Shown one piece after another: positions 6,152 to 54,008 of a stretch of DNA of 64,000 nt. Position numbers and translations under genes: made by a program. Location of the stretch: NCBI GenBank assembly GCA_000091205.1, contig AP006492.2. One strand, 5' to 3'. The first letter of the stretch is position 1. The number at the start of each line of letters is the position of its first letter. The notes under the pieces were generated by a model. The model worked only from the letters and a program-made list of their open reading frames with translations. It was not told the origin of the DNA and ran no database searches. Source of the DNA: Cyanidioschyzon merolae (Eukaryota).

Positions 6152-6398
6152 TCCATTGAGGTCCCTACGCTTTACTTAGAGCTTTTCGTTCGCTTTTAAG
6201 CCGAGACGGCAGGTTGCGCAACGTCATCGAGTTGTAGACGCGCACGAATAGCGAGTGCTTATTTCTCGACACGATGAAACTGGATTCGGAAAATAGATTC
6301 ATGAACTAAAGAGTGAACTGATTCCCGATGGAGGCCGAACGCCGTTCGAAAGTCGAACGACGGCAGTGCACCGTAGTGGCGAGAAGGCCGCCCTAGAC

Positions 6399-8674
6399 TT
6401 AACGACTCCAACTGGCGTACTGACGCTTCCTAGGCTTTCTGGACCGGCCACCCACTACTGATTCCAACTTCTTCTCATATAAATCAACTTTGAGAGGTTG
6501 TCCAATAAAGTTCTCTCGTGTCCGCTCTGGAGGTCTTTTCTCCAGCACCGCGCATCTCCTGATATTGATAGCGGCGTTGAAGTCTCGGTTAACGAACTCC
6601 ATACGCTTCTTGCCATCATTGGTTGTACATACTAATGCAATGAGTCCACGAACTTTTGCCTTCCGTTCCATTTGCTCTCCCGTCAGCGGTCCGTACTTTG
6701 CAATTTCCTCAGGACTCCTCTGGCACTTTTCCATCTCCAGGCTCTGGAGTGTGCACCCCAGTTCATGATGTGTATAAAATGTTCGAAACTCATGGATCGG
6801 TATTGTGACAAAACGCCGTGCACACTCCTTGTACGTTCTTGTCGTCGGAGCTGGCAGAGTTCCTTTTTGGGTGTTCCATCGCCCTGCTCCGTACGCTACT
6901 ACAAGCCTCTGTCTTTCATCCTTCTTCGAGGCGCTCAACTCATTGAAAAAATTCGCGAACGCCCGCTACCTCCCACCATATAGATTCGTACGCAGACGAG
7001 CCCACCGGGGCTCTGTATACTCCTCCCACAGCGCCTCCCAATGGGCAACAAGAACTTCCATGAAATTCCGAAAAGCTGTAAAGTCCGCTCCTCGGCTCGT
7101 CACCTCGCTCATAGCTTCAAGGTGATCCTTCATTCCTGCGTTCCACGTAACGATTTTCTTCCTTGCATTCATTATACCGGATTCTCGGTAGTATCTTGCT
7201 CTGGAGAACCTCCAAAGGCGCATGTCTTTCTGACGTAATTTGCCGTCAGTACCATATTCCGCACGCTTCGGTGCTGTGATGGTTATGATATTCGTGTTCC
7301 CAGGGTCTGCGCCGACGACAAAGTCGTTATCTTGGACTCTCTCCGTCGCAGGACCCGCCTCCTTCTTTTCTTCATGTTTCGCCGCGCCAACGACAAGGTC
7401 GTTATCCCGCACCTCCTGCATTGCAGGACCCGCCTTCTTCTCATCTTCATCCTTCGTGACGGGCGCAGCCAAAGGCGGACCAGCACGATCTTTCTACAAC
7501 CGCCGATAGTGTACACACAAGGCTACTCCATCGGTTTCGATCAACCCAGTGAACCACTTTTGCTCGCTCATTTTGAGACGTTTGAAATTGAAGATATTCT
7601 TCCAGTACGTTTCCCGGTTTTCATCGGAGAACTCCTCCCTGTTACCATTGAACTCCGGACTGATCCCCTTCATGATGCCGTAAAGGACTCTGGAGTCGGT
7701 ACTCACGAAATGTGACTTGATGTTGCACATTGGAACGACGTTGAAGCGCTTCCCCATTGGGACAGCCTTCCGTCTCTCCCACTCTTCATTTTTTTTCCCC
7801 ACTCAGCTTCATCTCTGCTTTGCGCTCGAGTTCTCGGTCCATGAACACGAAATACCGTACGACGAGGCGATCGTATCTTTCCTTATCTTTTTTCATGTCT
7901 GATATCTTGTCTGTTGGATTCGCCAACCCAGTACCGCACGATGCTCTTGAATAGCCGCACGGATTACAGAAGCTTCATTCGTGCTCTCGTTTGACGCCTT
8001 CTCGTCGACAAATTCGACCTCATCTTCACGCTTGCGATCTTTCACGATGTCGTTGATAATCGCCCATTTCCCATGGCGAGAGATGCCCTGGTACAGCGCA
8101 AACACGGCGCGTATCATGAAACGTTCGGGGTTCACTGTCAAATGGTTCTTCAGATTCGTGAAGTACTTCATTGCCCCGTCTGTGTAAATATCCCCGTCAC
8201 CCTTGTATCGAGTACCCTCGAGGCTGTAAAAGGGATGTTTTTCGTGGAGAGCATGCACTAGCTCATTTTGCCTCCTCGTTTCCCCTGTACCAAGCATCAG
8301 GTAACGAATAAAGTCTTATCGAAAAACTCGTCCGGAATCTCGACCGTTTCCGTGTGCGTCACGTCTCCGTACATCTCCCTCGCCAAATGAATCAATCCTG
8401 ACGACACCTCGACAACACGCTTGGAGTACGAGTCGACACGTTTTGCTGATACCCTCTCGCAACTTTTCCCTCTAGGGATCCTTGATATGTCCAAGACGAA
8501 AAGGTTTTCACCATAATATCGTCGTGCTGTCGTCTTTCCTGCAGCTTCTGACGTTGGACCTCTCCGTTTTGCCTCTTCGTCTTGTATTGTGGCTCCGGGC
8601 TTGGTACTTTTGTTCGTTTTTTTTCTGGCAGCCGGCGACACCTGTCTTCCAGGATCCTTCATTTCCATGTCCAT
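6399..8674 (-). pseudogene. Disrupted Fanzor/TnpB-like nuclease ORF (copy A): frameshift at ~8297, frame break 7802-7893, in-frame stop 7494-7496, ~69-bp tandem duplication at 7290-7450, frameshift 6938-6966
   Basis: Pieces align colinearly to copy B, but sit in different frames or are separated by stops. Start ATG 'MDMEMKD' at 8674; stop TAA at 6399-6401. Confidence 0.65.
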
Positions 8675-8900
8675 AGCTTTCCTTTGTTATTTTTTTGAAG
8701 AAGAGCGCACATGAAACGCGTTTGCTGTACACCGCGGGAAAGCACTTGAGTACACGCATTTGAGGGTTGAAACACGGTTGCACTGACAGACTATACGCTG
8801 CTAGGGCTTTAATGCAAATACAACTCGTACGTTATAGCAATACGCTCATATTAAGGATCGCGTTTCCCAGTTACGGCAAGATGCGCTTTGCGTCTCATGC
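6399..8900 (-). mobile_element. Fanzor/TnpB-like (IS605 OrfB family, RuvC nuclease) element, copy A, including conserved 5' noncoding region (8675-8900) and 3' region
   Basis: Conceptual minus-strand protein assembled from ORFs 8297-8674, 7893-8297, 7494-7802, 6966-7472, 6399-6938: RuvC-I '[13 protein letters not shown]' (Asp ~7306-7308), 'TSRGADF', 'RLVVAYGAGRW', Zn-finger region 'EFRTFYTHHELGC..LVC', RuvC-III 'VNRDFNAAINI' (6571-6597). ~50-60% aa identity to copy B at 41969-44094. Confidence 0.75.
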
Positions 8901-9032
8901 ATGCCAGATATGGAGATGCGCGTCTTGACTGCGCTCTAAAATAAAGAGCGGATAGGAACCTCTAAATACCAACTATATAACAATTTCTGGCCCCGCCTGC
9001 GATAAACGTTGAAAAAGGGAAAAGCTTACGGT

Positions 9033-9650
9033 ATTCTCGAAAGTATACCTTTTAGGTGCAAGGTCCCGCGAGCCGGACGATTCTGCCAGGGTTGTGCCTC
9101 ATGGTCGCCGCAGTGCTTCGTGCTGTAGTAAGATCTGAGCAGTTCGTCCGAAACGCAGTTGATTCTGGTACTCGTAGCGGGTATGCTGCACGTGGGCGTC
9201 GCTCTGGTCGCAGTGGACTCCTCGAATATCGTTTCGCGCTGCCACCGGCACTACGTCCGTCTCTACTGTTTCCACGCTCCCGGAATAATAATGTACTCCA
9301 GACCACGTGTCGGATGCATCATAATTCGATCCGACGCCCTCAGAAGCATGGAAAACCCGCCCTGACTTCGTGCTGCATCTGCCGCAGCGGTCTGACCGCA
9401 GACGCGGGTGCCCCAGACAGGCAAGACCCCCGATAGAACGTAAAAGAACGATCAGTATTTTCGAAAGCAAGTCTGAATGATAGACCTTGGTACACCAGCA
9501 TGACGAACGCTTTGTTTCGATTACCAGTACGCATCCCGCAATCTGGGATCCTTCGTCAATGGAACCGGTTTATCAAGAGTAGAGAAGATCACAAGCAGCG
9601 TGGCCGCCGCCTGCCTGACACAGCGGCTACACGGCCTACAGCATTGCTGT
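9033..9650 (+). repeat. Copy R2 of the H-module repeat (no A-rich tail), abutting the 5' end of Fanzor copy A in divergent orientation
   Basis: 'attctcgaaagtataccttttaggtgcaaggtcccgcgagccggacgat..gctgtagtaagatctgagcagttcgtccgaaacgcag' matches R1/R4/R5; downstream 'gcatcccgcaatctgggatcc' matches internal part of R4 (19690). Confidence 0.55.
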
Positions 9651-18545: not shown

Positions 18546-19175
18546 ACAAGGAGTGCCCGATGTCGCTGCTCAAGGAACGTGTCGATGACGCCCTATGCAA
18601 ATACACGCGGGTACATTGGACACGATTTCGCGTGCGCCGCTCTTCAAACATACACTCTTGGGAAAAACCTTTTTCACGCAGGCGCCGCTGCTTGGTAACC
18701 TATCGCGCAGCAGTGATCCAGCGTGTCTCGACCTGACACCTTCATTCATGAACCCGCGCTTCATACCAAGCAGCAGAGCATGGAGCCAGAATCTCTGTTA
18801 TCCGACGCTGTCTGCATAGAGGAGTGCTCGCATGCAACCTGCTGGCGCATGTGGATACGCGTTCTTCACAGCTTTCTGCCCTTGGACTAGTCTACGGGCG
18901 TGCGCGCTCACTTTCCCCGAAAGTCGATAGAGCAATCACTCGACGGCACCAAGCGTCGTCATTCTTCGCGGGAAACGTCGTCTTCGCTTCGATGGTTGTC
19001 GACAACAGTCGCGCATCCAGGGGATACTGGTACCATGCATCAGTCGCATGCAATCAGTGAACACACTGAACGAGATACCAGAAACAAAACGAGAGAAACC
19101 AAATTCTAACTAGCGTCTAGATAAGAATGTCGTTCAAACTTCACGGTAAGCATTGACAGGGAGACGTTTTCCGCG

Positions 19176-35980: not shown

Positions 35981-36594
35981 GAATTCTTGGCCGAGAATCG
36001 ATGCATATAGTGTGCTCCGTGCATACTCTGACGCGCAGGAAAGGATAAAACACAATGCATACGAGCCGTAAGGTGGACCATTCATGATCCAGCATTTCCG
36101 AAACACCGTTCAGAGAGATTCCGCCGGAAACCCCATCGTGCGGGCACGCTACCGTTCGGCGCGCTCTGCGCATACGCGCCACTGATGCCCAGATATCATC
36201 CAGCTCTGGAAAAAGCGGTTTCGGGGACGCCTTGTGCGCTCCGCCGCCGACGTCGCACGGAGACGGTGCGGCTACGGTGCAGAGATCAGCGGCGAGTCGT
36301 GGCTCGGGATGCGCTGGCGCGCGGATGCGCTCGCGCGAATCGATGCTTATGGAAAGGATGGATATTCTGTACCTAAATATTCTATATTGTCACACGAAGT
36401 CCGGAATGCAGTGCCTCGCTCGATCGACTGTGGGGTGTTCGCGGGGCGCAGCGATCGCATCCGCAGATCGCAAGCCTTGCGGGCTCGCACATCGTGCGCT
36501 CGCAGCTGAGCTTTGCTCGTGAAGGCTCCGGGACCTGGGCGCACCACCGGACTCGGGCGGTGTATTTCCCGTTTCAGGGAAAATTGTTTCGCTT

Positions 36595-39072
36595 ATGCTG
36601 GAAGCGCACTGCTCGCTTCTGTTTGTGAACGCAAGTCGTCTAACTGCACCTGAAAGTCCGTTCGAATGGACCTCTTCAGTACAACGAGGTCGCAGGCTGT
36701 GCTCCTCTCGCGTTGCTGTTCAAGAGCGCTTTCAGCTGATTGCAGCAGCTGATGACAAAAGTGCGAACTCGAGCTCATCTCAGAAGCCTAAAAAGGAGGT
36801 TGGCCATGGCGGCTCTTCGTCGAGCGTAGGGCAGTCACCGGCGAACGGGGCAAGTGTCCCGCGGACGGAAGCAAAACCCAGCGGTTTCGCTGCCGCAGCG
36901 GACGGGGCGCGCGAAGCGCACAGCGCAGAGAAGCCTGATCAAAGCGCTGACGAAAGCGTGGAGCGCACTCCTGCCAGGAAGACCCCTGCTCGAGGGCAGC
37001 GACAGAGGCAGCTGACAGAGAACCTGGTACGTCTTGCCGATGCTGCCGGCAAGCCGATTGCTGCACTAGGCGGCGGAGCGAGGGCTCGTCTGGACGCCGC
37101 GATCGATGAAATTCTAAAAAACACCGATCCGCAGCAGGCGTCAAAACGACGAGCAGTAAGCGTACTGAAAGGCGCGGCGGACACGACCTGGACTTGGTGG
37201 CGGACGCAGGCGATTCCACGTTTCATTCGACCACGTCTACCGGAACCGCTCGCGTTGCGTAGCGACGAAGCCGTTGCAGCCGGGCTACATGCGTTATTTT
37301 TCGTCGTTTTCTTCGCGCTTCCAGGCCTCTTTCATGGCTCTCCTGGCACCGAGAAGGAAGCGCTAATCAAACGCCACGAACTCGAATCGCAGACGAGCCG
37401 CCTCGAGCAGCGACTCAGCCGTCCATCTGATGGTACCCAAGCACCAGAGAAGAAACCCAGAGACCAGGGAACGCAAATGAATGGCTCCAGGTCGGCACCG
37501 AAATCATTCGCCACGAAGGGTGGTGTTCCATCGGAGCTGTCGACTAGGGGTAGCGGGCGTGAGCCGTCCGCGGCAGTGCCGCCCAGAGCGCCTGCGCCCG
37601 AACCAAGTACACTGCCACCACGAGCGCTCGGAAATGTTGTCGCTGCACTGCGGGATGCACTCCCAGCAGAGCAGCGCGACTGGATCTCGGAGGCCTCTTA
37701 TGACAGCCTGTCTGCGGAGCCGCTCATTGTGGTTGAAGTTCGCCCGTCTACATTCTTCAAATCAACGCCCTCAGACCAAATCGCATTTACGACGAAGCTG
37801 CTCGATGCAGCGCAGAAACTGGGTGTCAATGCTCTACGCCTGGTGGACGGTGAGGGTAATACTGTTGCATCCGCCGGTGGACGTACAGTCGCCCTGTCTG
37901 GCACCGAGCGTCGTTTACAGACAGAAATCCGAGCGCTGCGCAAAGAGCTCGAGCGTGCTGGAGCGGAGACTGCAGCCGCGAGAAGTGAGACTGCCGCTGC
38001 GCGGGAAGAGCTTGCTATGGCAAAGGAAACGTACGCGAAGGAACGAGCCGAGCTGGAGCGAAACCTGCAAGCGATAAAGGCGGAGAATGTGCGCCTCGCT
38101 GCAGATCTGCAGGACGCACAGCGAGAACTTGAACAGCAGCCCGAACGAGAGGCGTTACTGGCTCGTGCAGAGCACGCCGAAGAGGAGCGCCAAAAATATG
38201 CAGTTGCTGTGGAATCCCTTGGTGAACAGGTTGCTGAAGCGCGCAGCGCTCAACAGAAAGCAGAGCAGGAAGCAGCGCAGGCTCGCTCCAAGGAGGCGGA
38301 GGCCAAAGAGCAACTGCGCTCAGCACTAAATGACATAGAGGCCAAGTTGGAAGGCCAACGAGCGCAGTTCGCGGCTGAACAGCAACAGCTGAAGGCCCAA
38401 CATGAAAAGGAACTGGCCGCGGCTCGTGAGGAAGCTCAGGCCGAGATACGGCGCCTTCGGGATGCGCTGGCTCACGCGGAGCAGAGCAAAGCCGAGGCCG
38501 TTTCGCAGGCACGCAGTGAAACTCAAGCCGAAATAGAGCAACTTAGGAAGCGACTTGCGGAAGCGGCCAAGGAGCGTGAAACGGCGGTAGCAGCGGCGAA
38601 GCAGGAAGCGGCCCAAAGCATGCAGGCGCTGGAAAAGAGGTTGCAGGAGGCAGCTGCCGAACAACAGCGACAGCTCGCGCAACTGGAAAAGCAATCACAA
38701 GAGCAAGTACGTGCACTCGAATCGCAGCTGGAAAAAGCAAAGTCGAATACCGAGACCGCAGTGCGAGAGGCCACGGCACGTCTCGAGAAAGAGACAGAGC
38801 GTTTGCTGCAGGCAAAGGAACAGGAGCTGGTAGCATCTCGCGCAGCTGTGGCCTCGCTCGAAGCAGATTCGGAGAAACAGATGAAGCGCCTACGGCAGGA
38901 GAGCGCCAGACAGATCGCCTCGCTTGAAAAGCAGATATCTAATGAAAGGAAAACGGCAGAGCAACTGCGCAAGCGCTTGCAGACTCTGGAGCAGCGGCTG
39001 CGTAGCCGACCAGGAGCGCCAGCAGAGTCAGAGACGCCAGCATCTTCGACGGCAACGCCAGCTACCAGTTGA
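36595..39072 (+). CDS. Coiled-coil protein (long E/Q/A/K-rich coiled coil, one hydrophobic segment), function unknown
   Basis: ATG at 36595. Hydrophobic 'AVAAGLHALFFVVFFALPGLF'; residues ~430-790 are a continuous heptad-like 'AELERNLQAIKAENVRLAADLQDAQRELEQQ..' coiled coil. Confidence 0.55.
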   Translation: MLEAHCSLLFVNASRLTAPESPFEWTSSVQRGRRLCSSRVAVQERFQLIAAADDKSANSSSSQKPKKEVGHGGSSSSVGQSPANGASVPRTEAKPSGFAAAADGAREAHSAEKPDQSADESVERTPARKTPARGQRQRQLTENLVRLADAAGKPIAALGGGARARLDAAIDEILKNTDPQQASKRRAVSVLKGAADTTWTWWRTQAIPRFIRPRLPEPLALRSDEAVAAGLHALFFVVFFALPGLFHGSPGTEKEALIKRHELESQTSRLEQRLSRPSDGTQAPEKKPRDQGTQMNGSRSAPKSFATKGGVPSELSTRGSGREPSAAVPPRAPAPEPSTLPPRALGNVVAALRDALPAEQRDWISEASYDSLSAEPLIVVEVRPSTFFKSTPSDQIAFTTKLLDAAQKLGVNALRLVDGEGNTVASAGGRTVALSGTERRLQTEIRALRKELERAGAETAAARSETAAAREELAMAKETYAKERAELERNLQAIKAENVRLAADLQDAQRELEQQPEREALLARAEHAEEERQKYAVAVESLGEQVAEARSAQQKAEQEAAQARSKEAEAKEQLRSALNDIEAKLEGQRAQFAAEQQQLKAQHEKELAAAREEAQAEIRRLRDALAHAEQSKAEAVSQARSETQAEIEQLRKRLAEAAKERETAVAAAKQEAAQSMQALEKRLQEAAAEQQRQLAQLEKQSQEQVRALESQLEKAKSNTETAVREATARLEKETERLLQAKEQELVASRAAVASLEADSEKQMKRLRQESARQIASLEKQISNERKTAEQLRKRLQTLEQRLRSRPGAPAESETPASSTATPATS

Positions 39073-39314
39073 TGCTGTTTTGGTGTCGCCGACTAGTCTT
39101 TACGGACTGATTCGCAAGATGCACCATAGCGATGCCGCGGCTATATCATGACAAGCGCGCGGCCAAACAGCGCTGCTTGAGGCGCTGCGCATGTGCACGT
39201 TTCGTTCTGCCAGCAACAGCACTAGTGGTGTAGGCCATACGCCGACAGTTTCAGGTGAAACGCGAACCGACGCTCAGCATCTGAACGCGCAGACGCCTCA
39301 GCTGTGTTGCTTGT

Positions 39315-40817
39315 TCAGTTTGCGCCAGGCGTCGTAGCTGTCGGATCTCGAACTGATGCCACGGGTTCTGGACGACAATTACCGTCACGATCTACAGACT
39401 CCTGTCCCGCTTCTTGGTTGCTTTCCGATGCAAGCCAGTCACGAATAGCCTGAACCAGGGGCGGGCCCCGTTGCATCTGGATTTGCTCCTGCGTCGACAG
39501 CCTTTTGAGGCCGACCACGCCGGCTGCGAGTTCGTCTTCACCGAGAATGGCGAGCACCGGGATGCCGCGTTCCAATGCATACTGCAGCTGTCGAGCCATC
39601 TTGGGTCGTTCAGCGTACAAACATTCCGCCGCTAGATGAGCGCGCCATAGCTCATCACATAATTTCAGACGCTGCACGAGATCTACCTTGCCAATGCCCA
39701 CCACAAGCACCTGCGTCTTGCTTGCGCGAATGACGCGGCCAGTGGCTTGGGCAAGTTCACGTTCAGCCTCCTCCATTAGGGAAAAGATTCTCTCTATACC
39801 GATTGAAGTGCCTACGCAGGGTACGGGTTTCCCGGCAAAGTCCTCCACCAAACGATCATAGCGTCCACCGGCACCGATAGAGCCCAGCGGTGTTGAACCG
39901 TCCGTGAGCACGGCCTCGAAAATGAGACCCGTGTAGTAGTCTAGGCCGCGGGCGAGGGCAAGGTTCAGCGTACAACGTTCCAGGACATTGCCCATCGCCT
40001 CCAGGTACGAAAACAAGCGCTCGAGATCGGCCAGTGCTTCCTCGGCTCCAAACTTGCCGCAACAGAGGCTGTGGTCGGCCTGGAGCTCGCGGAGCAGCTC
40101 CCTGGGCTTGCCCGCTCGCGTCACAAACTGGCCAATCCGATCCGCACATGGTGCGGTTAGGCCTTTCACGTCGATCATTTCCTTTCGTACAACATCCCAA
40201 GGCTCCTTGTCGAGTTTGTCAATCGATGAGCAAATGGGTCGCAGAAGCTCCTTCGGCACGCCACATAGCTGCAGAATCGCATCCAGTAGACCTCGGTGGC
40301 TCAGTTTTACCTGATAGGATCCCAGTCTCTGGCGATGATACGGGCTCAAAGCCGCAAACTCGTCCAACACTTCAATGAGGACTCGAAGGACCTCAGCATC
40401 CGGTACCATCGGAGGATGCTGACCAGCAATATCGAAGTCGCACTGGTAAAACTCGCGAAAGCGACCACGAGCGATCGCCGGCTGGTCTCGTCGGTACACC
40501 CGACCCAGTTGGTATCGCTTGAGGCTCACAATGCCGTGCGTCGCAAGAAAGCGCGCGAAAGGCACCGTCAAATCGTAGCGGAGGGAAAGCAACTCGCCGC
40601 CCTGATCGGCAATGTCGTAGATGAGCTTGCTCTCCTCACCGTACTGACCCAGAAGCGTCTCTTTCAACTCGAAAACAGGCGTTTCGATAGTCACTGCGCC
40701 GTGGCGTTCAAAAACAGAGGTCACGAGCGCGAAAACGCGTTGACGTATGGCCATCTGCTCGGGTAGGAAGTCGCGGGTGCCCTTGGGCACCTTGCAGACT
40801 CGTCTCCCCGTCGACAT
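39315..40817 (-). CDS. HARS: Histidyl-tRNA synthetase (class II aaRS, eukaryotic type)
   Basis: 'CKVPKGTRDFLPEQMAIRQRVFALVTSVFERHGAVTIETPVFELKETL..LRYDLTVPFARFLATHG..RRDQPAIARGRFREFYQCDFDIAG' = HisRS motif 1/2 regions. ATG 'MSTGRR' verified at 40817 (ORF-track start 41132 lies upstream). Confidence 0.85.
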   Translation of the reverse strand: MSTGRRVCKVPKGTRDFLPEQMAIRQRVFALVTSVFERHGAVTIETPVFELKETLLGQYGEESKLIYDIADQGGELLSLRYDLTVPFARFLATHGIVSLKRYQLGRVYRRDQPAIARGRFREFYQCDFDIAGQHPPMVPDAEVLRVLIEVLDEFAALSPYHRQRLGSYQVKLSHRGLLDAILQLCGVPKELLRPICSSIDKLDKEPWDVVRKEMIDVKGLTAPCADRIGQFVTRAGKPRELLRELQADHSLCCGKFGAEEALADLERLFSYLEAMGNVLERCTLNLALARGLDYYTGLIFEAVLTDGSTPLGSIGAGGRYDRLVEDFAGKPVPCVGTSIGIERIFSLMEEAERELAQATGRVIRASKTQVLVVGIGKVDLVQRLKLCDELWRAHLAAECLYAERPKMARQLQYALERGIPVLAILGEDELAAGVVGLKRLSTQEQIQMQRGPPLVQAIRDWLASESNQEAGQESVDRDGNCRPEPVASVRDPTATTPGAN

Positions 40818-41289
40818 CGCACACGTCCTCTCAAGCGCTCTCGTTCGTCGAGGTACTCGGGCACTGCACGAGCGAATGTGTGCAGTAGTTGACTGCGCCA
40901 GGAACGCACTACGAAACGACTTGCTCAAGGCGGCAGTCCGTAACGTTACTGCACAGAACATGAGTAATAAGCGTCGTCCCGAGGGTACGAAGTCGTCTGC
41001 GGCAGTCGACGACTGGCGGCGACGCGGCGATTGCGGCGCTTCTGGTTGACGATTTCTCTTTGTCTTGACAAAACGTTTACGTTGACCACGGATCACAGAC
41101 TGCGGGATGGATATCGGTTGTCGACAAAGCATCTGTCATACTGCGCCCTACCTCCAAACTCCATTTCGCATATCTCCTTTCGGATATACTGGCTGTTTCG
41201 CACGTTCCATCGTGCGGCGGTTTCTGGCTTTGAGCACCCGCCGCCGCGCCCCAACCATTTACACGGATGCATCACGGAGGCAGACTGAC

Positions 41290-41660
41290 ATTGCCATACC
41301 GTATGAGGCATCGGCTCGAGGCGCCGTTCCTTCAACACAGACTCCACGTGCATAGTCATTCTGGGAGCCTGCAAGTTCCGCACCCAGACGTACTGTCTGC
41401 TGCAGCGCGAAGCGAAATACCAGGAGTCTACTGCTACCAGGGCGACGCCCAAACACAGCCTAACTGCCCCTAATCCCAGAATGATTTGCGTTTCGGACGA
41501 GCTGCTCAGACCTCACTACAGCACCAGCTACTGGGTAGCGTACGGAGCGCCTGACCCGCGGACTCGTCCGGCTCGCAGGACCTTCCGCCGAAAAAGTAAA
41601 CGTTCCGCAGTATGGAAAACTTTTCCTCCTTTTATCGTTCATCGTAGAGAGGGAATGAAA
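41290..41660 (-). repeat. Copy R5 of the H-module repeat (no tail), abutting the 5' end of Fanzor copy B in divergent orientation
   Basis: Reverse complement reads 'gaacgtttactttttcggcggaaggtcctgcgagccggacgagtccgcggg..gctgtagtgaggtctgagcagctcgtccgaaacgcaaatcattctgg..acgtctgggtgcggaacttgcaggctccc..cctcgagccgatgcc', matching R1/R2/R4. Confidence 0.55.
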
Positions 41661-41759
41661 TATATATTTGCTGGTAAATCGAGAGTCTCTGTACAATTTT
41701 TTCATATAGCGCGTTCCATACGCGCACCCGGGAGATCAGGCCGTCACATGACACGACGG

Positions 41760-44160
41760 GCATGACGCCGCTGAAGAGAAACGTAATATGGACTTGTTGA
41801 CCTGTTCCTCGAACGTATGCGTTGTAACGGTGTTGAAGTCAGAGCAAAATACAGTGTTTGATCTCAATACTATTTCAACCCTCAATTGGTTGTTCCCAAA
41901 AGCTTTTTCGCGGTTTACAGCACAAGCGTTCAAAGTGCGTTCGTTTTCGAGAATAAAAAAGGAAAGTTATGGACAAGAGAGTCGAGGCCTGCGGAGGCCA
42001 CGTGTCACCAGGTTCGACAAAACACTGGAAAACAGTGCGGGGCCCAGAGCGACAGGAGAAGGGGAAAGAGCAAAACTGGGAGCTCGCACATCAACTGCAA
42101 CTCGAAAGACGATACAATGACGAGAACGTAGAGAGAGCCTGTCTTCCAGGCCATCTCAGGGCTCCTTACAGAGAAAAGATGCAGGAGGGCATCAGAAACC
42201 GCGTCCTATCGTAATCCAGGAGTATTTGAAAAGCTTCTCTTTGATTGATGCATTTGGTGAGGGACCTTTACCATGACGTTACGGACATCAAAACAGTCGA
42301 GGTTCCGGAGGAGTTTTTCAGTGTGACCTTCATCCGCCAACTGATGCTTGGCCCAGAGCGAACCTCGACGATAGACGATCGAGTGCGAGCCCTACACCAA
42401 ACATATGCCTTCTACCGCTTCAACGGTTCTCGATACAAGGGTGACTTGGGCATTGACACCTACAGGGCGATGAAGTATCTCGAAGACTTGAAGAGCCACC
42501 TGATCGAAAACCTCGAAAGCTTCATGAACTGCTCCGTCTTCGCGCTCTACGATGGCCTCTCTGTCCGCGGGAGATGGGCGATCATCAATGGCATCACGAA
42601 CGATCACCAGGATGAAGCGGAGATAGAATGCTTCGGTGCGAAAACATCGTACAGGTGTACGTATGAGAATTCTGTGATCTGTGCAGCCATTCAGGAGCAC
42701 CTTGCGGTACCGGGGCTTGTCAACCCTGCAGAAAAGGTATCAGAGATGAAAAGAGATACGAAAAGATTCATCCCCTCATTCTGCGCTATTTCGTGTACCT
42801 GAACCGAGAGCTCGAACGCAAGGCGGAGATGCAGCTGGGTGAAAAACGAAATGGAGCGCCGGAAAAACGGAAGGCTGCGCTTCTGAAGAAGCGCTTTCAC
42901 GTCGTTCCGATACGCAACACCATGTTGCACTTCGTGACCATCGACTCCAGCGTCCTTTACGGCATGATGCAGGAGATCAGTCCGAAGTTCGACGTCAGCT
43001 CGGAGGAGTTCACGGGGATAGACTGGGAGACTCATTGGAAAAATGTCTTCGATTTCAAAGGTATCAGGAAGAGCAACACAGAAGCATTCGCAGGCAAGAT
43101 CGAAACCGATGGGGTATGCATATGTGTACACTCCAGGCGCTTGAGCAGGCATCGTCATATCCTGTCATCGTTTTCGCCCTGGACGAAGCATCAAAAGAGA
43201 GAGGCGATCCATATGCTGTACGAGCCGCAGAAGAGCGACTTTGTCGTCGGCGTGGACCCTGGAAAGAAGGATATCATGGCCGTCGCTGTGCCATAGTATG
43301 CAAAAGACGGTATCAATGCCAACTTACGCCAAATGGACATGCGTATGTTGAGGTTCTCGACGGCTAGATTCAACAGAGAGTCGGGGATGATAGGTGCCTT
43401 GAGGCAAACCGAGGCTTGGAACTCAAGATTGAAGGAGCACCTGGAAGCGGTCAGCAAAGTGACGAGCTGCGGAGCGGACTTTCGGACCTATCTGGAATTC
43501 ATGGAAACGCACGCTGCGCATGATGGGGACCTGTGGAAGGAGTACATAAAGCCCCGATGGGTTCGTCTGCCTATGGACCTGTACGGAGGGGAGCAGCGTG
43601 CATTCGCCAATTTCTTCAATGAGTTCTGCGCCCTCAAAGAAGGCAAGAGTCAAAGGCTCGTAATAGCGTACGGAGCAGGGAGCTCGTTGCCCGAAAACGG
43701 GAGCACACCGGCACCGTCGACACAAGCGTTCATCGAGTGCGCAAAGCGTTTTGTCACTGTCGTAATAGTCGAGTTCCGAACGACCTGCGTGCACCATGAG
43801 CTGGGCTGTACACTCCAGAAGGTCAGGATGGGGACACAGCCGCCGAGCTCTTCGGGGAAAGAAAATCACGGGGAGCGAACAGAGCGGCCGATGCCACAGA
43901 GGGCGCTAGTTCGAGGACGCCTTCTGTTGGACACTACAGTCAGCGCCATGAAACGCAGGGAGTTCGTGAACCGAGACTTCAACGCCGCCATGAACATCAG
44001 GCGATGTGCTCTGCTGAAGACGAGACCCCCGGAGCTTACGCGAGCGAACTTCGAGGGTAGCTTCCCGGGCTCGACGTGTGCTGGGGGAAACTGAATCCGA
44101 CAGCAGTCGACCGGTCAGAAAAGGATGGGAAGCGTCTGCGAGTGGGGAGATATATATTAA
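41760..44160 (+). mobile_element. Fanzor/TnpB-like (OrfB family, RuvC nuclease) element, copy B, with conserved 5' leader and 3' noncoding region
   Basis: ORFs 41969-42214 / 42245-42802 / 42793-43296 / 43333-44094 are colinear with copy A. RuvC-I 'DFVVGVDPGKKDIMAV' (43247-43293), 'TSCGADF', 'RLVIAYGAGSS' (43666-43680), 'EFRTTCVHHELGC', RuvC-III 'VNRDFNAAMNI' (43969-43995). Upstream 41810-41968 is ~80% nt-identical to 8675-8860(rc). Confidence 0.75.
41969..44094 (+). pseudogene. Fanzor/TnpB-like nuclease ORF (copy B), nearly intact: one frameshift near 42748-42795 and one in-frame TAG at 43297-43299
   Basis: '..IMAVAVP*YAKDGINANLRQMDMRMLRFSTARFNRESG' aligns to copy A '..[36 protein letters not shown]' across the TAG, so the stop replaces a sense codon. 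Start 'MDKRVEAC' ATG at 41969. Confidence 0.6.
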
Positions 44161-45099
44161 CCCTCCACTGTTGTGAGACATTTTTCGTTTTTTTTACGGT
44201 ACGGAAAGAATGAGCATAAAACAGACTGGAAGCTGCGCGATTCGGTTTAGCGGCAGGAAGTGCTGCGCAGATGACTCGCCATTGCCCATGCAGTGGCAAT
44301 ATTCTTGCTACCAATGACCATTTTGCGTGTTCAGGTGGTGTCCATCGAGGAAGGACCCCAATATTCCGTTTTGGTGTCGTGCCTTTGGTGGCACCCATCG
44401 CCTCCTTCGCAACATCCTCTTTAAACTCAACATACAAGCCCGGATAACCGGCAGCGTGCACACATCCGGGAAGGCTTGCTAGGTCCATCGTCCATGCACC
44501 AACAAAATTGTGCCTGGAGACACCCTCTGCCAAGAAGTCGCTGCGCAACTCGCGCCAACAATTCTACGCAGGAGTCTGAGCAGTCTCCGAGCAGTCACCA
44601 GCCGTAGCTGCAGCCACGGATTTTCGCGACACACGCTCAAATGCTTTCCTGGCGCCTGGAAGTTTACTCAATCAGCGCAATGCGGTACATGCCTCTGGTA
44701 TTTCGCAGCACGCATTGTCGTCGTGCATGGACGCTGAAACGCTGTCTATCAAAGAATCCTCTACTCGTATTGTGACGCTGAACACAGCCGCGACTTCACC
44801 GAAATGCGTGCCCCAGTGTGTGGACGATGCGTAGCGCCGTACGACATCAACGCTTCTCCAGTGCCTATGCGAGGTTCATACGGAGCTCTGAACTGCGGGC
44901 TCTGTTCCGGACTTGCGCATTTTCCCGGACTTGGTTTCAGAAATGTAGTCTAGACGTTTGAAGTGCAGCAGTAGGGTCTTGGAGATTCATGCGTTGCTTT
45001 AGGATTCTTGGTCGTCTTTTCGATCTGGCGCTTTCGATTCGCTGCCGACGGAGCTCGTAACTTTACGGGAATCAGGATGATTCGCGGCAGCTTCGAACG

Positions 45100-45812
45100 A
45101 TGGTTCATAAACTAACCGATACCAATATGCAATGCAGACCCACAAGCCTTCAGGGTTCTTGTTTCCTAGCGTGCAGCATGCGCACACCGTGCATACTTCA
45201 AGTTTTCGATTTTTCAGGCACTGGGAAAACAGTGAGTGCAGTGATTCGCGCCAGCGGACTGAGGTGGAAAAGTAGTCGACACCGTTTCTTGATGGCATTC
45301 GCACAAGCTCATTCCATAAGCTTACTGAACCTGGTCAAGCCCAGTAATCAGTTCCGCTCGAAAAACAAGTCATCCCCTATTTGGGGCCATCATCCCCAAG
45401 AGAAACCCGTCATCGTAGTGGGCGTTCACGAACGCGGAAACCGGGGTCGTCATCGAGGATGGCCCCAGGTACCCCCCAGACGACGTGTACTGAGCGTTGC
45501 AACAATCGTGTACGCAATGCAAAGTAGCCTTCGGACGAGCGTGTATGCTGGACGTACGGGAAGACCTGTCCAGTGTCAAGTGTGACCGCTGCGAAGCGGA
45601 CACCGACGCTGTATACGAATGAGCTGACTGTAGCGAGCGACGTGTAGGTGGCAACTCGCGCTTGTGCATGAAATGCGTCAACAGCGGCTGCGGGTGGCGA
45701 AACCGACACTTTCTACATTGCCATGAACGTCCATTGATTGCCAACAAGGGAGCTGGAGAGACAGATGAGACCGACATTGTTACAGCCGCGGATACGAGAC
45801 AGGAATGGAAGC
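45100..45812 (-). repeat. Left copy of an inverted repeat pair (~0.7 kb); core 45250-45812 is ~97% identical to the reverse complement of 59224-59790
   Basis: The reverse complement of 'acaatgtcggtctcatctgtctctccagctcccttgttggcaatcaatggacgttcatgg' (59264-59323) is 45721-45780 exactly; ~8 mismatches per 320 bp in the compared core. Outer ~150 bp more diverged. No long credible ORF. Confidence 0.75.
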
Positions 45813-45948
45813 AGTCGGAGAAAAAGCCTGTATAGGCTGCTACTCAGGACAATGGAGTAAATCACACTTTAGGGCGTATGCCCGATGTAGCTCTGTGAAC
45901 CCGTTCCGTTTCGTACTGACACGAGCGTGTCGCGGCCGCCTTTGCTTT

Positions 45949-50632: not shown

Positions 50633-51299
50633 GGTGCCCTGGTTGTATACTCAGATAAATAAATACTTGAACACCTGTACCAGCACGGCTTTCTTTGCTA
50701 TACCTTTCTTACCTCGCGAATATTCAACAAAAGGTTGTATCCCGTAGGTGGGAGAACGGTCGCGGGAACACTTCCTGCCGTCTGTGCTAGCTTGCCAAGA
50801 AAACGGTCTTTATTGTCCATGTCAGGTATTCTCTGGTCGGCAGGTAGATCAGCCGCTGTTCTCGTGGTCCTTTTGCTGCAAGTCGTACTCACCAGACAGA
50901 GCACATTTGGCTCTGTCTGCACTGCATTCCCGACATGAATGCGTTCCACTCCACATATATTATCTGCGAAATAGCATCTAAGAGACACAAGGTGTGCAAT
51001 CTCCGCACAGTTGAAACGGACGGTGATAAAGGGACGCACACGGACACAGGAAAAAACGCGCCTCTGTGCGAGAACGTTCCGCGCTGAGCTCCGTGCTGCC
51101 AGTTTCGCGGGGGCATGCGAACGCTTATCGTGCAGATGGCAGATGTTCGTCACACTCGATGAGACCTCGTTCGGGAGAAACGGGAGACATGTGTACGGGC
51201 ACCCAGAGCGGGAGCAACAAGTGTTCACAGAGAAGCGACACACGCGCATTCCGAGAGTATCTGCCCAGACGGCGACTGAGTCGTATGTTTTGCTTTGCG

Positions 51300-51730
51300 T
51301 CGGAAAACGGGTCGAAGTCTTGAACGCCTCATGCTTGTTCTTCGCAGCATTCCACGGCGTCTCGTTCTTACACGGCTCCGTGCGGCTCTGCGTCAACGTC
51401 GCTTTCCATCACCCTGAAGAGGTCAACGAGCACGCAGGTGACATTGGCGCTGCGCTGTTCCTCGTACCAGCCTATTCGCCCCGGTCGAGTTCAGTCGAAC
51501 GCATCTGCTCTGTTGGCGAACGCCATTTCCATGGGCACCAATGCGCAGGCGAGTCTTTTACATCCGCGACTCGGTTCGATGGCGAATCGTTCTTCGACAA
51601 TGCGTTGTCTGCTATTGGTGCACAGGAACTGCTGTGTTGCTGCTCGGCTCGTGGGCGGAAACGAGCGGAAACGAGCTCTCCGGTCGGTTGGGGCTCCCAG
51701 TTCGAGAAAGGTGAGGAATGGATCCTCAAG
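51300..51730 (-). repeat. Copy R6 of the H-module repeat (diverged), abutting the 5' end of the Fanzor copy C remnant in divergent orientation
   Basis: Reverse complement 'cacctttctcgaactgggagccccaaccgaccggagagctcg..gagcagcaacacagcagttcctg' parallels R2/R4 head 'taccttttaggtgcaaggtcccgcgagccggacga..gagcagttcgtccgaaacgcagttgattctgg'. Weaker than the other copies. Confidence 0.4.
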
Positions 51731-51849
51731 TAGAACGAGACGTATATATAGGAGGGAGCGAGTTTCTGTATCAACGCCTGTCCATCGCGTCTGTATTTCG
51801 AGAGAAAACCGGGCATGGAGTGTTGCCACCGCATCCATGCCACCTCGCA

Positions 51850-52750
51850 TAGTTAAGGGGCACAAGAAGAAGGAACTGGTATATATAAGCATCAACGTTG
51901 CGTTCGAACTACTTTGCAAAGCGCGGTGGCGGCGCTCGGACAAGGTTTCTCGATAACAGGAAAGAAATACCGGAAACGTTTATCCGGACGATGGAGACCG
52001 ACGGGATGCCAACCAGCATGCACCTTGCAGCACGTATGCCAGAGTCGAGCAGCCAGACTCATTTCCAACCGTTCAAGGTTGATGAACAAACAGAGACTTT
52101 GTGGTCGGGGTCGATCCGTGTCACTCGGCATCATAGCCGTCTCCGTACCCCTGCATCAAGAGGGCAGTGCTAAAGACCTACAAGGAGAGCAGATAAAGCA
52201 GCTCGAATTTTCCAGTGCTCGATATGATCGGCAGTCGGGCATGGTAGACGCCAGGCGGCATACCGTCCAGAGGAATGGTTGCTCGAGAGCCCATCTCGAC
52301 GCCCTGAGGACGGTGGCGCGCAGAGGGTAACGCTTTGTGCGCCTCATGCAGAGGGGGAGCTCATGAGCGTCAAACTGGCTCCAGCGGACGATCTTTGACA
52401 AGAACGCGTGGTGCCGAGCAGGGCACGCACATGGTGCTGGCTCCGCAGAGGCGAGAAGCTCGTGTTCGCAGACTTTGTGGTTGATGTGGGAAACGAAGTG
52501 ACCGCCCAGTCGGGTCGATTGACGGTAGCCTATAGCGCTGGACCTACTCCAGCTCACAAAGTCTGCAGTGATGCTCGCTCCCGTCGAGAGCTTGCTACAA
52601 GTTCAGGGATTGATTCTGCACGATTTCGACCGACGCATTCACACCGTCATGCACGCAGCACGATCTCGGGTACAGGCTGAAACTTGTCGAGAAGAGGCGA
52701 TTGAATTAGAGACCGTTGCACGAGATGGTGTGCGATACGCTGCTTGAACG
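51850..52750 (+). pseudogene. Degenerate remnant of a third Fanzor/TnpB-like copy (C)
   Basis: Frame-hopping matches to copies A/B: 'FLDNRKEIPETFIRTMETDG' (51930-51990) ~ 'FDFKGIRKSNTEAFAGKIETDG'; 'DFVVGVDP' at 52097-52120; 'LEFSSARYDRQSGMVDARRH' ~ 'LRFSTARFNRESGMIGALRQ'; 'RLTVAYSAGPTP' ~ 'RLVVAYGAGRW'; 'SARFRPTHSHRHARS' ~ 'HEFRTFYTHHELGC'. Confidence 0.55.
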
Positions 52751-54008
52751 CCCGACGGCGAGGCAATCGGAGATGCAGAGACTGCTGTGGTGTGCTTTCA
52801 CCAGCCACAATGTGCTCAGGTTCTTTCTGCATCGCGAGTTGATCGCCTCGATACACATCTGGCAATGTCTCGTGGTTCCGAAGCGCACAGCGGCTGTGTC
52901 GAGCGAACTTTCGGGAAAATCGTCTAGTTCTGCTTGTTGGCATTGCACTGACTGCCTGCAAGCTGTCGGTAAAAGCGCATCGGTGTTCAAGAACTGTCCG
53001 ACTGAATGCCCGCTCGGAGCATAGCGCTGGTACGGTATGGGTGAGCAATCGAGCGAGGCTGAAGCGGCCTGCTCATACAACGGGATCGGTTTCTCGGGGC
53101 AGAGGATGATTGGTAATGGTGTTCGAGTATTCGATCCTATTGGGCATAGGTTGTTGAGAAAATCCATGGGTCGCCCTAATGATCGACGGCAGTTCATGTG
53201 TCTACCTGAAGAAATATTCTGTTAACGCCAAATCTCAGGTGTTCGGTGAACGAAAACTGTTAGCTCTAGCGTGCCCTATAAAAAATGCAGTTTCGAAGTT
53301 TGGCTGAAAGGTTTTGATGCTCCCCCAATTTTCAGGCGTTTGGTGAACCAGAGCTTGTAACTCTTGACATACCCATAGAAAGCAGTGTCTACGGCAGCGT
53401 TATGAGGCAGCGCTTCGGGGACGCATGCGAACGTGCTGTCCCCAGTAGTTACGTAACAAAACGCTCCTGATCGACGTCTACGCGTCAGCACTCGTGCTGA
53501 CGCGACTACCGTCTGCGGCAAGTTTCGGACGACATGCGCATCCTGGATGCCAGCTTGCGAAATCGTTTATCTGCAAGACGTTTAGTTTTCTGAAAGCATC
53601 AGACCGTTTAGGAAGAAAGTGCTGTCACCGAAAGGCGGCGATCATCATGCCTTGCTTTTCGAGCGCGAAAGACTCGGCTCGTTTCGCTCGCCGGACGCGG
53701 GCGACCGTGAGAGGCTCCTCAAACGCATTAAAGCCGCATCACGAAACGTACGTGCGCTTTCGTGCAGGCTCCATGTCTTGGTATTCCAATCAATGCAGCA
53801 CCAACTACACCATCGCTGTCCTTTAAAGTGTAGGGTCGGGGTGAGCGTGACATTCAGCGCAGTATATTCGAATCCCCGACGGATCACCCAGCTTTGAATG
53901 GGGTATCCCGCTGGTGTCAGTTTTCCATAGGTCGCCCTCATCTAGACCCCTGCGAGCGCACGCAAGTAAACCTGCTCTACAAAGAACGTCTACATAGAGT
54001 CGTGAGCC

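Follow-up and report, generated by a model that had tools for sequence, protein, structure and literature searches.

What kind of sequence is the degenerate, Fanzor-like copy B, is its damage real, and what does its divergence from a second such copy (copy A) say about the history of their family? Both copies lie in the 64,000-nucleotide stretch of Cyanidioschyzon merolae DNA analyzed here (the window). A sequence-only reading had placed copy B at 41760–44160 and described it as the more intact of the two.

Identity and architecture of the copy B locus

Copy B occupies an intergenic site on chromosome 10 of C. merolae 10D, between the histidyl-tRNA synthetase (HisRS) gene and a patatin-like phospholipase gene. 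Six of the ten window ORFs that we compared exactly match the NCBI C. merolae 10D proteins BAM80178–BAM80191, and no annotated protein of this strain at NCBI lies between HisRS and BAM80191. Rfam and tRNA scans of the whole window returned no matches.

By blastn, positions 4–2995 of the CMe-1A consensus align to 41066–44051 of the window (+ strand) at 75.7% nucleotide identity. Copy B is a decayed, nonfunctional copy of CMe-1A, i.e. of a transposable element carrying Fanzor1, a eukaryotic TnpB-like nuclease. The family was described in 2013, and copy B thus adds a known, ordinary element. The 3169-bp consensus was published in the supplement of Bao and Jurka (2013, Mobile DNA 4:12; PMC3627910), together with ~150 copies that average ~80% identity to it and include a few intact ones, and a single-exon gene of 734 amino acids ("734 (1)" in the supplementary table). 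Taking all the evidence below together, we assign a probability of roughly 0.9 to copy B being a fixed, dead CMe-1A-type Fanzor1 insertion, derived from a divergent source lineage that was constrained and then inactivated.

Element B is 3.1 kb long, running from 41063 to ~44195 on the + strand, and extends beyond the interval first given for it. Its parts and the related elements of the window are as follows.

41063..41698, + strand: 5′ module, TE-N2_CMe-like, consensus positions 1–635; no ORF; 77.5% identical to the consensus
41699..41968, + strand: noncoding spacer or leader separating the 5′ module from the start codon of the Fanzor gene; consensus 636–905; 76.7% identical
41969..~44165, + strand: degenerate Fanzor1 coding region, ~734 ancestral codons, from translation and codon alignment to the consensus CDS
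44105..44195, + strand: "B type" 3′ terminal region, from comparison with the consensus and metagenome loci
6363..9575, − strand: copy A, the other CMe-1A element of the window, consensus match 9575–6363
1024–3062, − strand, and 50999–52898, + strand: Mariner/Tc1-type Fanzor relics

Copy B agrees with CMe-1A (PMC3627910) in its organism, its 635-bp TE-N2_CMe-like 5′ module, its spacer, its intronless 734-codon Fanzor1 ORF, its length of ~3.1–3.2 kb, and the absence of terminal inverted repeats (TIRs). It differs in being more divergent than the typical copy, in having a different terminal 50–80 nt at the 3′ end, and in being a pseudogene. The 635-bp, TE-N2_CMe-like 5′ module of CMe-1A was described by Bao and Jurka (2013; PMC3627910); TE-N2_CMe itself is a separate 635-bp repeat homologous to the 5′ module of element B. 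The 5′ boundary is sharp, with homology to ~25 other copies beginning at 41060–41070 and a T-rich run, GATTTCTCTTT, directly preceding the module at 41052–41062.

The copy B gene starts with the ATG at 41969, and its coding frame has position mod 3 = 2 through 42769 and mod 3 = 1 thereafter. The frame followed in the sequence-only reading stops at the TGA at 44092–94; the ancestral C-terminal tail runs in the third frame to ~44165, where it reads LPGLDVCWGKLNPTAVDRSEKDGKRLRVG and matches the consensus QPLKVELYEKKLEAVVGGRSKKTGRRLHV. At the 3′ end, identity to the consensus is 57% over consensus positions 3001–3110 and ~46% over 3111–3169, and the last ~50–80 nt of element B have no homology to the published CMe-1A 3′ end. 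The B-type terminus is common to at least 14 other metagenome loci, in which homology stops near ...CATTTTTCGTTTT.

We found no inverted repeat joining the two ends of 41063–44195, no target site duplications flanking element B, and, in a tblastn search with the DDE_3 protein of ENA contig L002, no transposase remnant in 41000–44300. Copies A and B alike lack a transposase remnant and TIRs, in which they differ from the Mariner/Tc1-type Fanzor1 elements such as PUl-1/2 of Pythium, where a DDE transposase and a Fanzor gene lie between TIRs (Bao and Jurka, 2013; PMC3627910). Remoter relatives in the same clade do have that layout, L002 carrying DDE_3 and the Fanzor protein P0041 between 34-nt imperfect TIRs, and so do the relics of the window at 1024–3062 and 50999–52898. 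The element carries no transposase and is made of a 635-bp 5′ module, a single intronless Fanzor1 gene of ~734 amino acids, and a short 3′ end. RNAalifold, applied in a search for an omega-RNA-like structure, predicted zero pairs on 16 B-type 3′ ends and a weak consensus structure (−5.8 kcal/mol) lacking compensatory pairs on 18 A-type ends; a terminal hairpin was not above shuffled sequences. A subterminal hairpin occurs at the 3′ end of some family copies.

The coding region of copy B has homologues with E values down to 1e-192. A scan of viral contigs yielded a single relative, 34% identical. No other copy is as divergent as copy B, whose amino acid identity to any database protein does not exceed 56%; its CDS is above average in divergence (74% identity, versus ~80% for a typical copy), and the homologue searches found no close relative. 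One might suppose from this divergence, and from terminal 50–80 nt unrelated to the consensus end, that copy B stands outside CMe-1A, as a separate Fanzor family that shares only the protein fold. The DNA homology to the consensus is, however, continuous from position 4 to 2995, taking in the 5′ module and the spacer, whose order and distances are unchanged, and we consider a separate family unlikely. On sequence comparison, copy B is best described as a divergent CMe-1A subfamily with an alternative 3′ end.

Fanzor1 relationship and active-site motifs

The description of copy B as Fanzor-like was borne out, both by a family profile, which reached the Parasitella Fanzor1 in the PDB, and by the predicted fold of the family. 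Queried alone, the copy B sequence gave no match in Pfam or the PDB, and the link to Fanzor1 emerged only through the profile and fold searches. Against PDB sequences, a profile of copy B and 10 homologues retrieved PpFz1 (E = 4.9e-8) and GtFz1 (E = 0.067) and no others. The fold comparison used an AF2 model (pLDDT 66.5, pTM 0.58) of P0014, an intact family member ~40% identical to copy B. The top seven PDB matches in Foldseek were all SpuFz, PpFz, or GtFz (E = 2e-12 to 3e-10; TM 0.41–0.54 over ~690 columns), with Cas12 proteins ranking after them (E of at least 2e-3). By profile and predicted fold, then, the CMe-1A family belongs to Fanzor1, whose fold combines REC/WED with a split RuvC.

The characterized Fanzor1 structures are those of Spizellomyces punctatus SpuFz (8GKH, 9CEU–9CEZ), Parasitella parasitica PpFz (9CF0–3), and Guillardia theta GtFz (9CER). 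The CMe-1 family has in common with them the overall fold (TM ~0.4–0.54 at full length), a basic disordered N terminus, a rearranged active site, and profile-level similarity in the ETDGV...DPG (RuvC-I) and DEFRTS...NRD.NAA regions. It differs in sharing just 11–14% sequence identity with them and in having THHE...LLALVS in place of their CxxC...CxxC (LLWC in remoter relatives); copy B, unlike these proteins, is nonfunctional. Likeness to bacterial TnpB (IS200/IS605, IS607) consists of the RuvC-like D..E..D core, the C-terminal RD.NAA.NI motif, the lack of TIRs, and the 3′ subterminal hairpin of some copies. Compared with TnpB, the CMe-1 protein is ~300 amino acids longer, with a eukaryote-type N terminus, no zinc ribbon, and no TnpA. 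A direct sequence match to TnpB was not obtained, the Pfam OrfB_Zn_ribbon/Cas12f1-like_TNB entry scoring far below threshold (E = 0.23).

The motifs of copy B are located as follows.

43246..43272, + strand: RuvC-I, VGVDPGKKD, with the catalytic Asp GAC at 43255–57; aligns to the DPG of Parasitella and Guillardia Fanzor1
43657..43686, + strand: canonical RuvC-II position, LVIAYGAGSS, with Glu replaced by Gly, the "rearranged" Fanzor active site
43759..43809, + strand: VVIVEFRTTCVHHELGC, with the alternative catalytic Glu GAG at 43771–73; what is left of the zinc ribbon's first half, lacking any CxxC
43963..44004, + strand: RuvC-III, FVNRDFNAAMNIRR, with the Asp GAC at 43975–77

The rearranged Fanzor active site was described and defined in PMC10530073: an Asp in RuvC-I, Gly/Pro where RuvC-II canonically has its Glu, a rearranged Glu in DE..TS, and the RuvC-III Asp of RD.NAA. 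Intact members have such a site, with the Asp of DPG, a Gly in place of the canonical RuvC-II Glu, an alternative Glu within DEFRTS, and the Asp of NRD.NAA; by homology, they would be RNA-guided RuvC DNA endonucleases.

Copies A and B were said to retain all the RuvC and zinc finger motifs. In copy B, this holds for the RuvC D/E/D residues but not for the CxxC...CxxC zinc ribbon, since only two Cys lie between the Glu and the RD. The Fanzor signature with a C4 zinc ribbon is D-X-[TS][TS]-X-X-[C4]-X-RD (Bao and Jurka; PMC3627910); in copy B, EFRTT and NRD are separated by 68 residues, of which just those two are Cys (TTC and LGC). The CMe-1 consensus reads HHELGC...EKC at this site, intact relatives have zero to three Cys there and never CxxC, and the positions of the four PpFz1 Cys are taken by H, L, V, and L/C. 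As judged from these alignments, absence of the zinc ribbon is a departure of the whole CMe-1 clade and no lesion specific to copy B.

Damage to the copy B gene, and intact copies of the family

Copy B had been credited with no more than a single frameshift and a single in-frame TAG. Both lesions exist, but they are not the only ones: alignment to the family consensus revealed at least seven, namely five premature stops and at least two frameshifts.

42212..42244, + strand: three further in-frame stops, TAA 42212–14 (Tyr82), TGA 42227–29 (codon 87), and TGA 42242–44 (Gly92)
42769..42770, + strand: frameshift 1, with 1 nt of the consensus deleted at codon 268; the frameshift reported earlier
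43297..43299, + strand: in-frame TAG replacing Lys444 (AAG) of copy A and the consensus; the stop reported earlier
44054..44060, + strand: frameshift 2, a 1-nt deletion near 44054 (codon 698), and a TAG at 44058–60 in the corrected frame

The stops at 42212, 42227, and 42242 sit within the conserved stretch RV.SYS..I.KASSGLMHL, and the last ~37 codons contain several small indels, up to ~44143. An intron as the cause of the frameshift or the TAG was rejected, as a single base is missing and nothing is inserted, the TAG aligns to the Lys codon for codon, and the consensus gene has a single exon. A variant genetic code was also rejected, given that the neighboring genes are long standard-code ORFs with exact NCBI protein matches.

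Sequencing or assembly errors might have disguised a gene that is really intact and active. We compared the window with L003, L004, and L044, independent JGI metagenome assemblies of the same species that are 99.5–99.6% identical to it. The TAG at 43297–43299 is identical in all three, and none has an indel at the 42769/70 frameshift site, where L003 differs by a C/T SNP at 42769 alone. The TAA at 42212 and the TGA at 42242 are fixed in the window, L004, and L044; L003 begins at 42708 and is hence uninformative for the stops at 42212–42244. The TGA at 42227 is polymorphic, being CGA in L044. Both frameshifts and four of the five stops are the same in every assembly covering them, so these are true lesions and not assembly errors. 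With at least seven lesions to explain instead of two, we give the error explanation practically no credence. The insertion itself is fixed in all strains seen.

The search for an uninterrupted paralogue succeeded: full-length intact copies with all catalytic motifs were found, L013 being one and L001/L022 another. L001 and L013 keep D/E/D. The product of a gene flanking L013 matches BAM80976.1 of C. merolae 10D at 100% identity. With intact copies and the published 734-amino acid consensus at hand, the proposal that an active member would best be rebuilt from copy B, the most divergent copy, is not supported. Two candidates first taken as intact Fanzor genes, L011 (819 amino acids) and L082 (801 amino acids), proved not to be Fanzor on alignment; L028 lacks RuvC-III.

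Probable past constraint and present drift, and the CMe-1 family

Copy B lies on the + strand, in frames spanning 41969–44094, and copy A on the − strand, confirming their opposite orientation. Their identity is 50.3% at the amino acid level, the bottom of the 50–60% range put forward earlier, and 68.1% at the nucleotide level over 692 codons. Copy A is closer to the consensus (81–87% by blastn; CDS 86.3% nucleotide and 78% amino acid identity) than copy B (CDS 74.2% in the codon alignment and 59–61%, respectively). The damage to copy A comprises six frameshifts, four stops, and a tandem duplication of 75 nt that keeps the frame.

The two copies had been taken as evidence of an old family that was under purifying selection before decay, and the data agree with that view. 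NG86 dN/dS values, which are approximate at such divergence (pS 0.39–0.58), were 0.40 for copy A versus copy B, and hence not ~1, 0.455 for copy B versus the consensus, and 0.36–0.39 for copy B versus intact copies. In the RuvC part, they were 0.17 for copy A and 0.36 for copy B, and all comparisons gave a pN roughly half as large as pS. Copy B also keeps 79 of the 91 family-invariant residues. Before the C-terminal tail, copy B has 4 stops against 20 under neutral decay (95% range 12–29), and 4 or fewer arose in 0 of 2000 simulations; copy A has 4 against 12 expected under neutrality (0.6% of simulations). Because dN/dS is ~0.4 and stops are far fewer than neutral decay predicts, the divergence between copies A and B probably arose mostly under coding constraint. 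Such long-lasting constraint was already inferred for CMe-1A by Bao and Jurka (2013; PMC3627910).

At 77.5% identity to the consensus, the noncoding 5′ module matches it as well as the CDS does (74.7%). A contrast of the CDS being conserved above noncoding DNA therefore fails, and the argument for constraint is drawn from pN < pS and the scarcity of stops. This similar divergence of the 5′ module and CDS would also be expected if copies A and B were neutral wrecks of a single burst from one master copy, a star phylogeny in which 50% protein divergence says nothing about selection. Copies ~75–86% identical to the consensus would by themselves predict ~65–70% pairwise nucleotide identity, close to the 68.1% seen. 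A neutral burst does not account for dN/dS values of 0.36–0.46, for the missing stops, or for the 3′ terminus of copy B, which differs and is common to other loci, pointing to a different sublineage. We regard it as very unlikely. Much more probably, copy B came from a divergent CMe-1A-family lineage that was under moderate coding constraint through most of its history, was then inactivated, and now drifts neutrally.

Polymorphism among the metagenome assemblies fits neutral drift at present. SNP density, from small counts that paralogue misassembly may have inflated, is 8.0 SNP/kb in copy B and 2.7–4.4 SNP/kb in the flanks, and the SNPs of copy B (13 nonsynonymous, 4 synonymous) are at the neutral ratio. 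Partial domestication, in which a surviving sub-ORF such as the 253-amino acid C-terminal ORF at 43333–44094, or an RNA from the locus, serves the host, would draw on the fixed insertion and on the fact that this longest open stretch still has the Glu and the RuvC-III Asp, two of three catalytic residues. The ORF nevertheless lacks RuvC-I and the entire N-terminal half, and its ATG is polymorphic, T/A at 43334 changing Met to Lys in both L003 and L044. The doubled SNP density, the neutral 13:4 ratio, and the lack of conserved RNA structure at the 3′ end in RNAalifold also argue against a host role, and domestication seems extremely improbable. As part of the dead-insertion account favored above and at the same probability, copy B appears to drift neutrally today, with no function of its own.

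Copy B matters little by itself: it is one of ~150 decayed copies, and its practical value is that of a data point for the history of the family. At the family level, a transposase-less, TIR-less Fanzor element has reached ~150 copies. It is possible, although rather doubtful, that the CMe-1 clade is a natural zinc ribbon-less Fanzor1 lineage still active in a thermoacidophilic alga, and that CMe-1A elements, the ancestor of copy B among them, have been mobilized in trans by the DDE_3 (Tc1/mariner) Fanzor elements that left relics in the window, or through a TIR-less, hairpin-dependent mechanism. An active lineage of this kind is conceivable because the intact L001 and L013 keep D/E/D and dN/dS in the family is below 1; if it exists, the novelty lies in the CMe-1 family, and copy B is still dead. 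The lineage is of modest interest for keeping its RuvC catalytic residues under selection without a zinc ribbon, elsewhere a hallmark of TnpB and Fanzor. C. merolae grows at ~40–50 °C and very low pH. Given these conditions, L001, L013, and other intact members might be candidates for development into compact nucleases for genome editing that tolerate heat.

Copy B as a Fanzor1 element of the CMe-1A family

Copy B, a 3.1-kb element on the plus strand, gave no match to a Pfam family or to a PDB sequence when searched alone. A search of 5.8 billion proteins returned 46 homologues. These come without exception from JGI or ENA metagenomes, are 31-56% identical to copy B, and are at most weakly tagged DUF8286. 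A profile of copy B and ten homologues matched only Fanzor1 proteins in the PDB, those of Parasitella parasitica (E = 4.9e-8) and Guillardia theta (E = 0.067), through the blocks ETDGV...DPG and DEFRTS...NRD.NAA.N.R. For P0014, an intact homologue, an AlphaFold2 model (pLDDT 66.5, pTM 0.58) was compared with PDB structures; SpuFz, PpFz, and GtFz made up the seven best matches (E = 2e-12 to 3e-10; TM 0.41-0.54 over ~690 columns), and every Cas12 ranked lower. Together, the profile and fold matches give good support to the initial "Fanzor-like" assignment and indicate the Fanzor1 subtype. By homology, intact CMe-1 proteins would be Fanzor1-type endonucleases that cut double-stranded DNA under RNA guidance.

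A single Fanzor1 family, CMe-1A, was described in C. merolae by Bao and Jurka in 2013, with ~150 copies ~80% identical to a consensus of roughly 3 kb, no TIRs, and TSDs and classification then undetermined (PMC3627910). Its 5' 635 bp correspond to a separate ~70-copy repeat, TE-N2_CMe, and the supplementary consensus spans 3169 bp with a 734-aa single-exon protein (PMC3627910). The family and its evolutionary reading are already published. Both copy B and copy A, the other CMe-1A element in the window, align with this consensus, as do three solo 5' modules (74-78% identical to its 5' end), and several solo modules lie immediately upstream of host genes.

Sequences aligned to the CMe-1A consensus
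41066-44051 (+): copy B, consensus 4-2995, 75.7% identical
41063-41698 (+): 5' module of copy B, 77.5% identical
41699-41968 (+): spacer between 5' module and coding sequence of copy B
41969 (+): start of the coding sequence of copy B
9575-6363 (-): copy A, consensus 4-3140, 81-87% identical
3438-3908 (-): solo TE-N2_CMe-like module
13399-13581 (-): solo TE-N2_CMe-like module
19106-19720 (-): solo TE-N2_CMe-like module

Homology between copy B and ~80 metagenome loci begins sharply at 41060-41070. The final ~50-80 nt of copy B differ from the published CMe-1A 3' end and instead match a second terminus type, found in at least 14 other loci, that ends near 44195. The consensus homology and the alternative 3' terminus identify copy B as a divergent sub-family member of CMe-1A. 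The element has neither a transposase nor TIRs.

Directly outside the published consensus start, every CMe-1A 5' end compared is preceded by a T-rich run of variable length, usually after GA (GATTTTTTTT, GATTTCTCTTT, and similar), namely those at window 41052-41062 and 9580-9590 and in metagenome loci L032, L036, L040, L043, L051-L053, and L081. The run could be a target-site preference, the true element terminus, or, on the other strand, an A-rich tail. No TSD was definable at the 5' boundaries compared.

A consensus structure for a guide-RNA scaffold was not found at B-type 3' ends; the one obtained for A-type 3' ends was weak and had no compensatory pairs. Roughly half of the A-type copies have a terminal hairpin (CGTTCGACTTTCGAACG), a perfect 7-bp one (CGTTCGA-CTT-TCGAACG) with GCGTT after it, for example at window 6336-6361 (-) and at 8111-8135 of locus L011. 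Compensatory changes (GTTCTA/TAGAAC) occur in a few copies; pairing overall was not above shuffled controls (34/500 and 60/500).

Genomic setting and other Fanzor relics

Exact matches to NCBI C. merolae 10D proteins, all on chromosome 10, were found for 6 of the 10 window ORFs looked up (BAM80178, BAM80180, BAM80182, BAM80184 (= CMJ329C), BAM80189, and BAM80191). A histidyl-tRNA synthetase gene lies immediately upstream of copy B, and the next gene downstream encodes a patatin-like phospholipase. The accession numbers of these flanking genes are consecutive, with no annotated protein between them, placing copy B in unannotated "intergenic" DNA. Introns are nearly absent in C. merolae, and the 53-60% GC and long single-exon ORFs of the window agree with such a genome. 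The window also contains a 640-bp inverted repeat pair (45176-45817 and 59224-59864; 95% identical) unrelated to the Fanzor elements.

Two additional Fanzor1 relics, far more divergent, were detected by tblastn with P0014 (26-39% identical), and a Tc1/mariner DDE_3 transposase relic immediately precedes each of them.

Divergent Fanzor1 and transposase relics
1024-3062 (-): Fanzor1 relic, E = 5e-21, with the 3438-3908 solo module just upstream
2290-3062 (-): DDE_3 relic
50999-52898 (+): Fanzor1 relic, E = 3e-14, split over three frames
50999-51610 (+): DDE_3 relic, E = 9e-20 in comparison with the transposase of L002

Both may derive from autonomous Fanzor elements of the mariner type that were related to the CMe-1 lineage. 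A mariner-type Fanzor element that is intact occupies 550-3589 of L002 (ENA contig NODE_19748), with a DDE_3 transposase (573-1466) followed by the 652-aa Fanzor1 P0041, 33% identical to copy B, between imperfect 34-nt inverted repeats (550-583 and 3556-3589). Another relative, 34% identical to copy B over almost its whole length, is encoded at 360-2000 of L083 (IMG/VR UViG_3300028372_000028). This contig is classed as viral, so the relative may be the Fanzor of a giant virus, or the contig may be eukaryotic and wrongly assigned.

Lesions and catalytic motifs of copy B

Searching the window by tblastn with the ORF pieces of copy B located copy A at ~6498-8395 (-), with 40-57% identity per segment, and the core observation of a second Fanzor-like copy on the opposite strand was correct. 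In a codon alignment in the family-consensus frame, the two are 50.3% identical at the aa and 68.1% at the nt level across 692 codons, at the lower end of the ~50-60% protein identity first estimated. Homology to copy A, database homologues, and the published consensus places the gene start of copy B at ATG 41969.

Reading frame and motifs of copy B
42212-42244 (+): three additional in-frame stops (TAA, TGA, TGA) within the conserved RV.SYS..I.KASSGLMHL
42245-42802 (+): ORF reading through the TnpB/Fanzor-like protein
42793-43296 (+): second such ORF
43333-44094 (+): third such ORF
43255 (+): RuvC-I Asp, VGVDPG, kept
AYGAG (+): canonical RuvC-II position with Gly substitution, kept
43771 (+): alternative Glu, VEFRTT, kept
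43975 (+): RuvC-III Asp, NRDFNAA, kept

The sequence-only reading had counted only one frameshift and one in-frame TAG. The frameshift is a single-base deletion at 42769/42770, and TAG 43297-43299 does replace a sense codon, AAG (Lys444) of copy A and the consensus; however, the damage was undercounted. Besides the three further stops, a second 1-nt deletion near 44054 puts the C-terminal tail out of frame, the corrected frame meets a TAG at 44058 after it, and the last ~37 codons contain several small indels. Copy A carries 6 frameshifts and 4 stops along with a 75-nt in-frame duplication, so copy B has fewer frameshifts yet is not nearly intact. The duplication in copy A is a tandem one in the acidic linker before RuvC-I (7309-7456, -), and the intact homologue P0001 has several such repeats (KHEE.K.A.PATQEV.DND); tandem duplication is thus how this linker lengthens.

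Relatives are encoded at 288 or more loci in the JGI metagenome contigs scanned. Three contigs (L003, L004, and L044) are 99.5-99.6% identical to window 36251-45605 and thus represent the same locus of the same species, independently assembled. None has an indel relative to the window anywhere in the copy B coding region. All three share the frameshift and TAG 43297, the sole change there in L003 being a C/T SNP at 42769; TAA 42212 and TGA 42242 recur unchanged in both assemblies that span that region, L004 and L044. Assembly error is thereby excluded, and these are true lesions. TGA 42227-29 is CGA (Arg) in the L044 strain, and this stop is therefore still polymorphic.

The claim that all RuvC and zinc-finger motifs are retained holds for the RuvC D/E/D residues but not for the zinc finger. 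The Gly-substituted RuvC-II and alternative Glu constitute the same "rearranged" active site reported for Fanzors (PMC10530073). A C4 zinc ribbon, listed in the Fanzor/TnpB signature (PMC3627910), is absent from copy B and its clade in the alignment to PpFz1 and intact relatives: the four zinc-ribbon Cys of PpFz1 are matched by H, L, V, and L/C. Copy B has two Cys in this stretch and intact relatives zero to three, with no CxxC arrangement in either; the absence belongs to the clade as a whole and does not reflect damage to copy B. Among 91 residues invariant in the consensus and six diverse intact homologues, copy B keeps 79 and copy A 81.

Intact paralogues, selection, and decay

Uninterrupted paralogues with all D/E/D motifs were found among L001-L082, namely L001/L022 (722 aa from the first Met) and L013 (747 aa). 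A gene product neighboring L013 is identical to C. merolae 10D BAM80976.1, and the genes on either side of L001 are homologues of BAM82337 and BAM82338, which are neighbors in 10D; an intact paralogue thus exists, within the same species complex at least. These intact copies share 79-81% identity with the consensus protein, compared with 59% (consensus-frame codon alignment) or 60.7% (protein alignment) for copy B, which has no relative above 56% identity among database proteins and metagenome loci, its own orthologues aside. Copy B, once proposed as the best template for reconstruction, is therefore a poor one next to the published consensus or the intact copies.

The proposal of an old family under purifying selection before decay was borne out. 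NG86 dN/dS was 0.40 between copies A and B, and thus not ~1; it was 0.455 for copy B and 0.385 for copy A against the consensus, 0.36-0.39 for copy B against intact metagenome copies (~630-690 aligned codons), and 0.43-0.55 among intact copies. Random substitution of the consensus coding sequence to the divergence of copy B produced a mean of 20 stops (95% range 12-29), and none of 2000 runs gave four or fewer; for copy A, the mean was 12, with four or fewer in 0.6% of runs. This stop deficit indicates that most divergence accrued under a maintained reading frame, in separate source lineages. Scaled from the stop count, very roughly a fifth of the divergence of copy B would postdate inactivation. 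The non-coding 5' module, probably constrained too, resembles the consensus as closely as the coding sequence does, so the argument for constraint rests on pN < pS and the stop deficit.

Across the window, L004, and L044, the coding region of copy B has 8.0 SNPs/kb, compared with 2.7-4.4 SNPs/kb in flanking genes and spacers. Its 13 nonsynonymous and 4 synonymous SNPs are, in small numbers, about the neutral expectation. Copy B is a relic that cannot encode the Fanzor protein and carries neutral polymorphism. The stop at 42227, a nonsense variant still segregating in a gene that is already dead, gives direct evidence that neutral decay continues.
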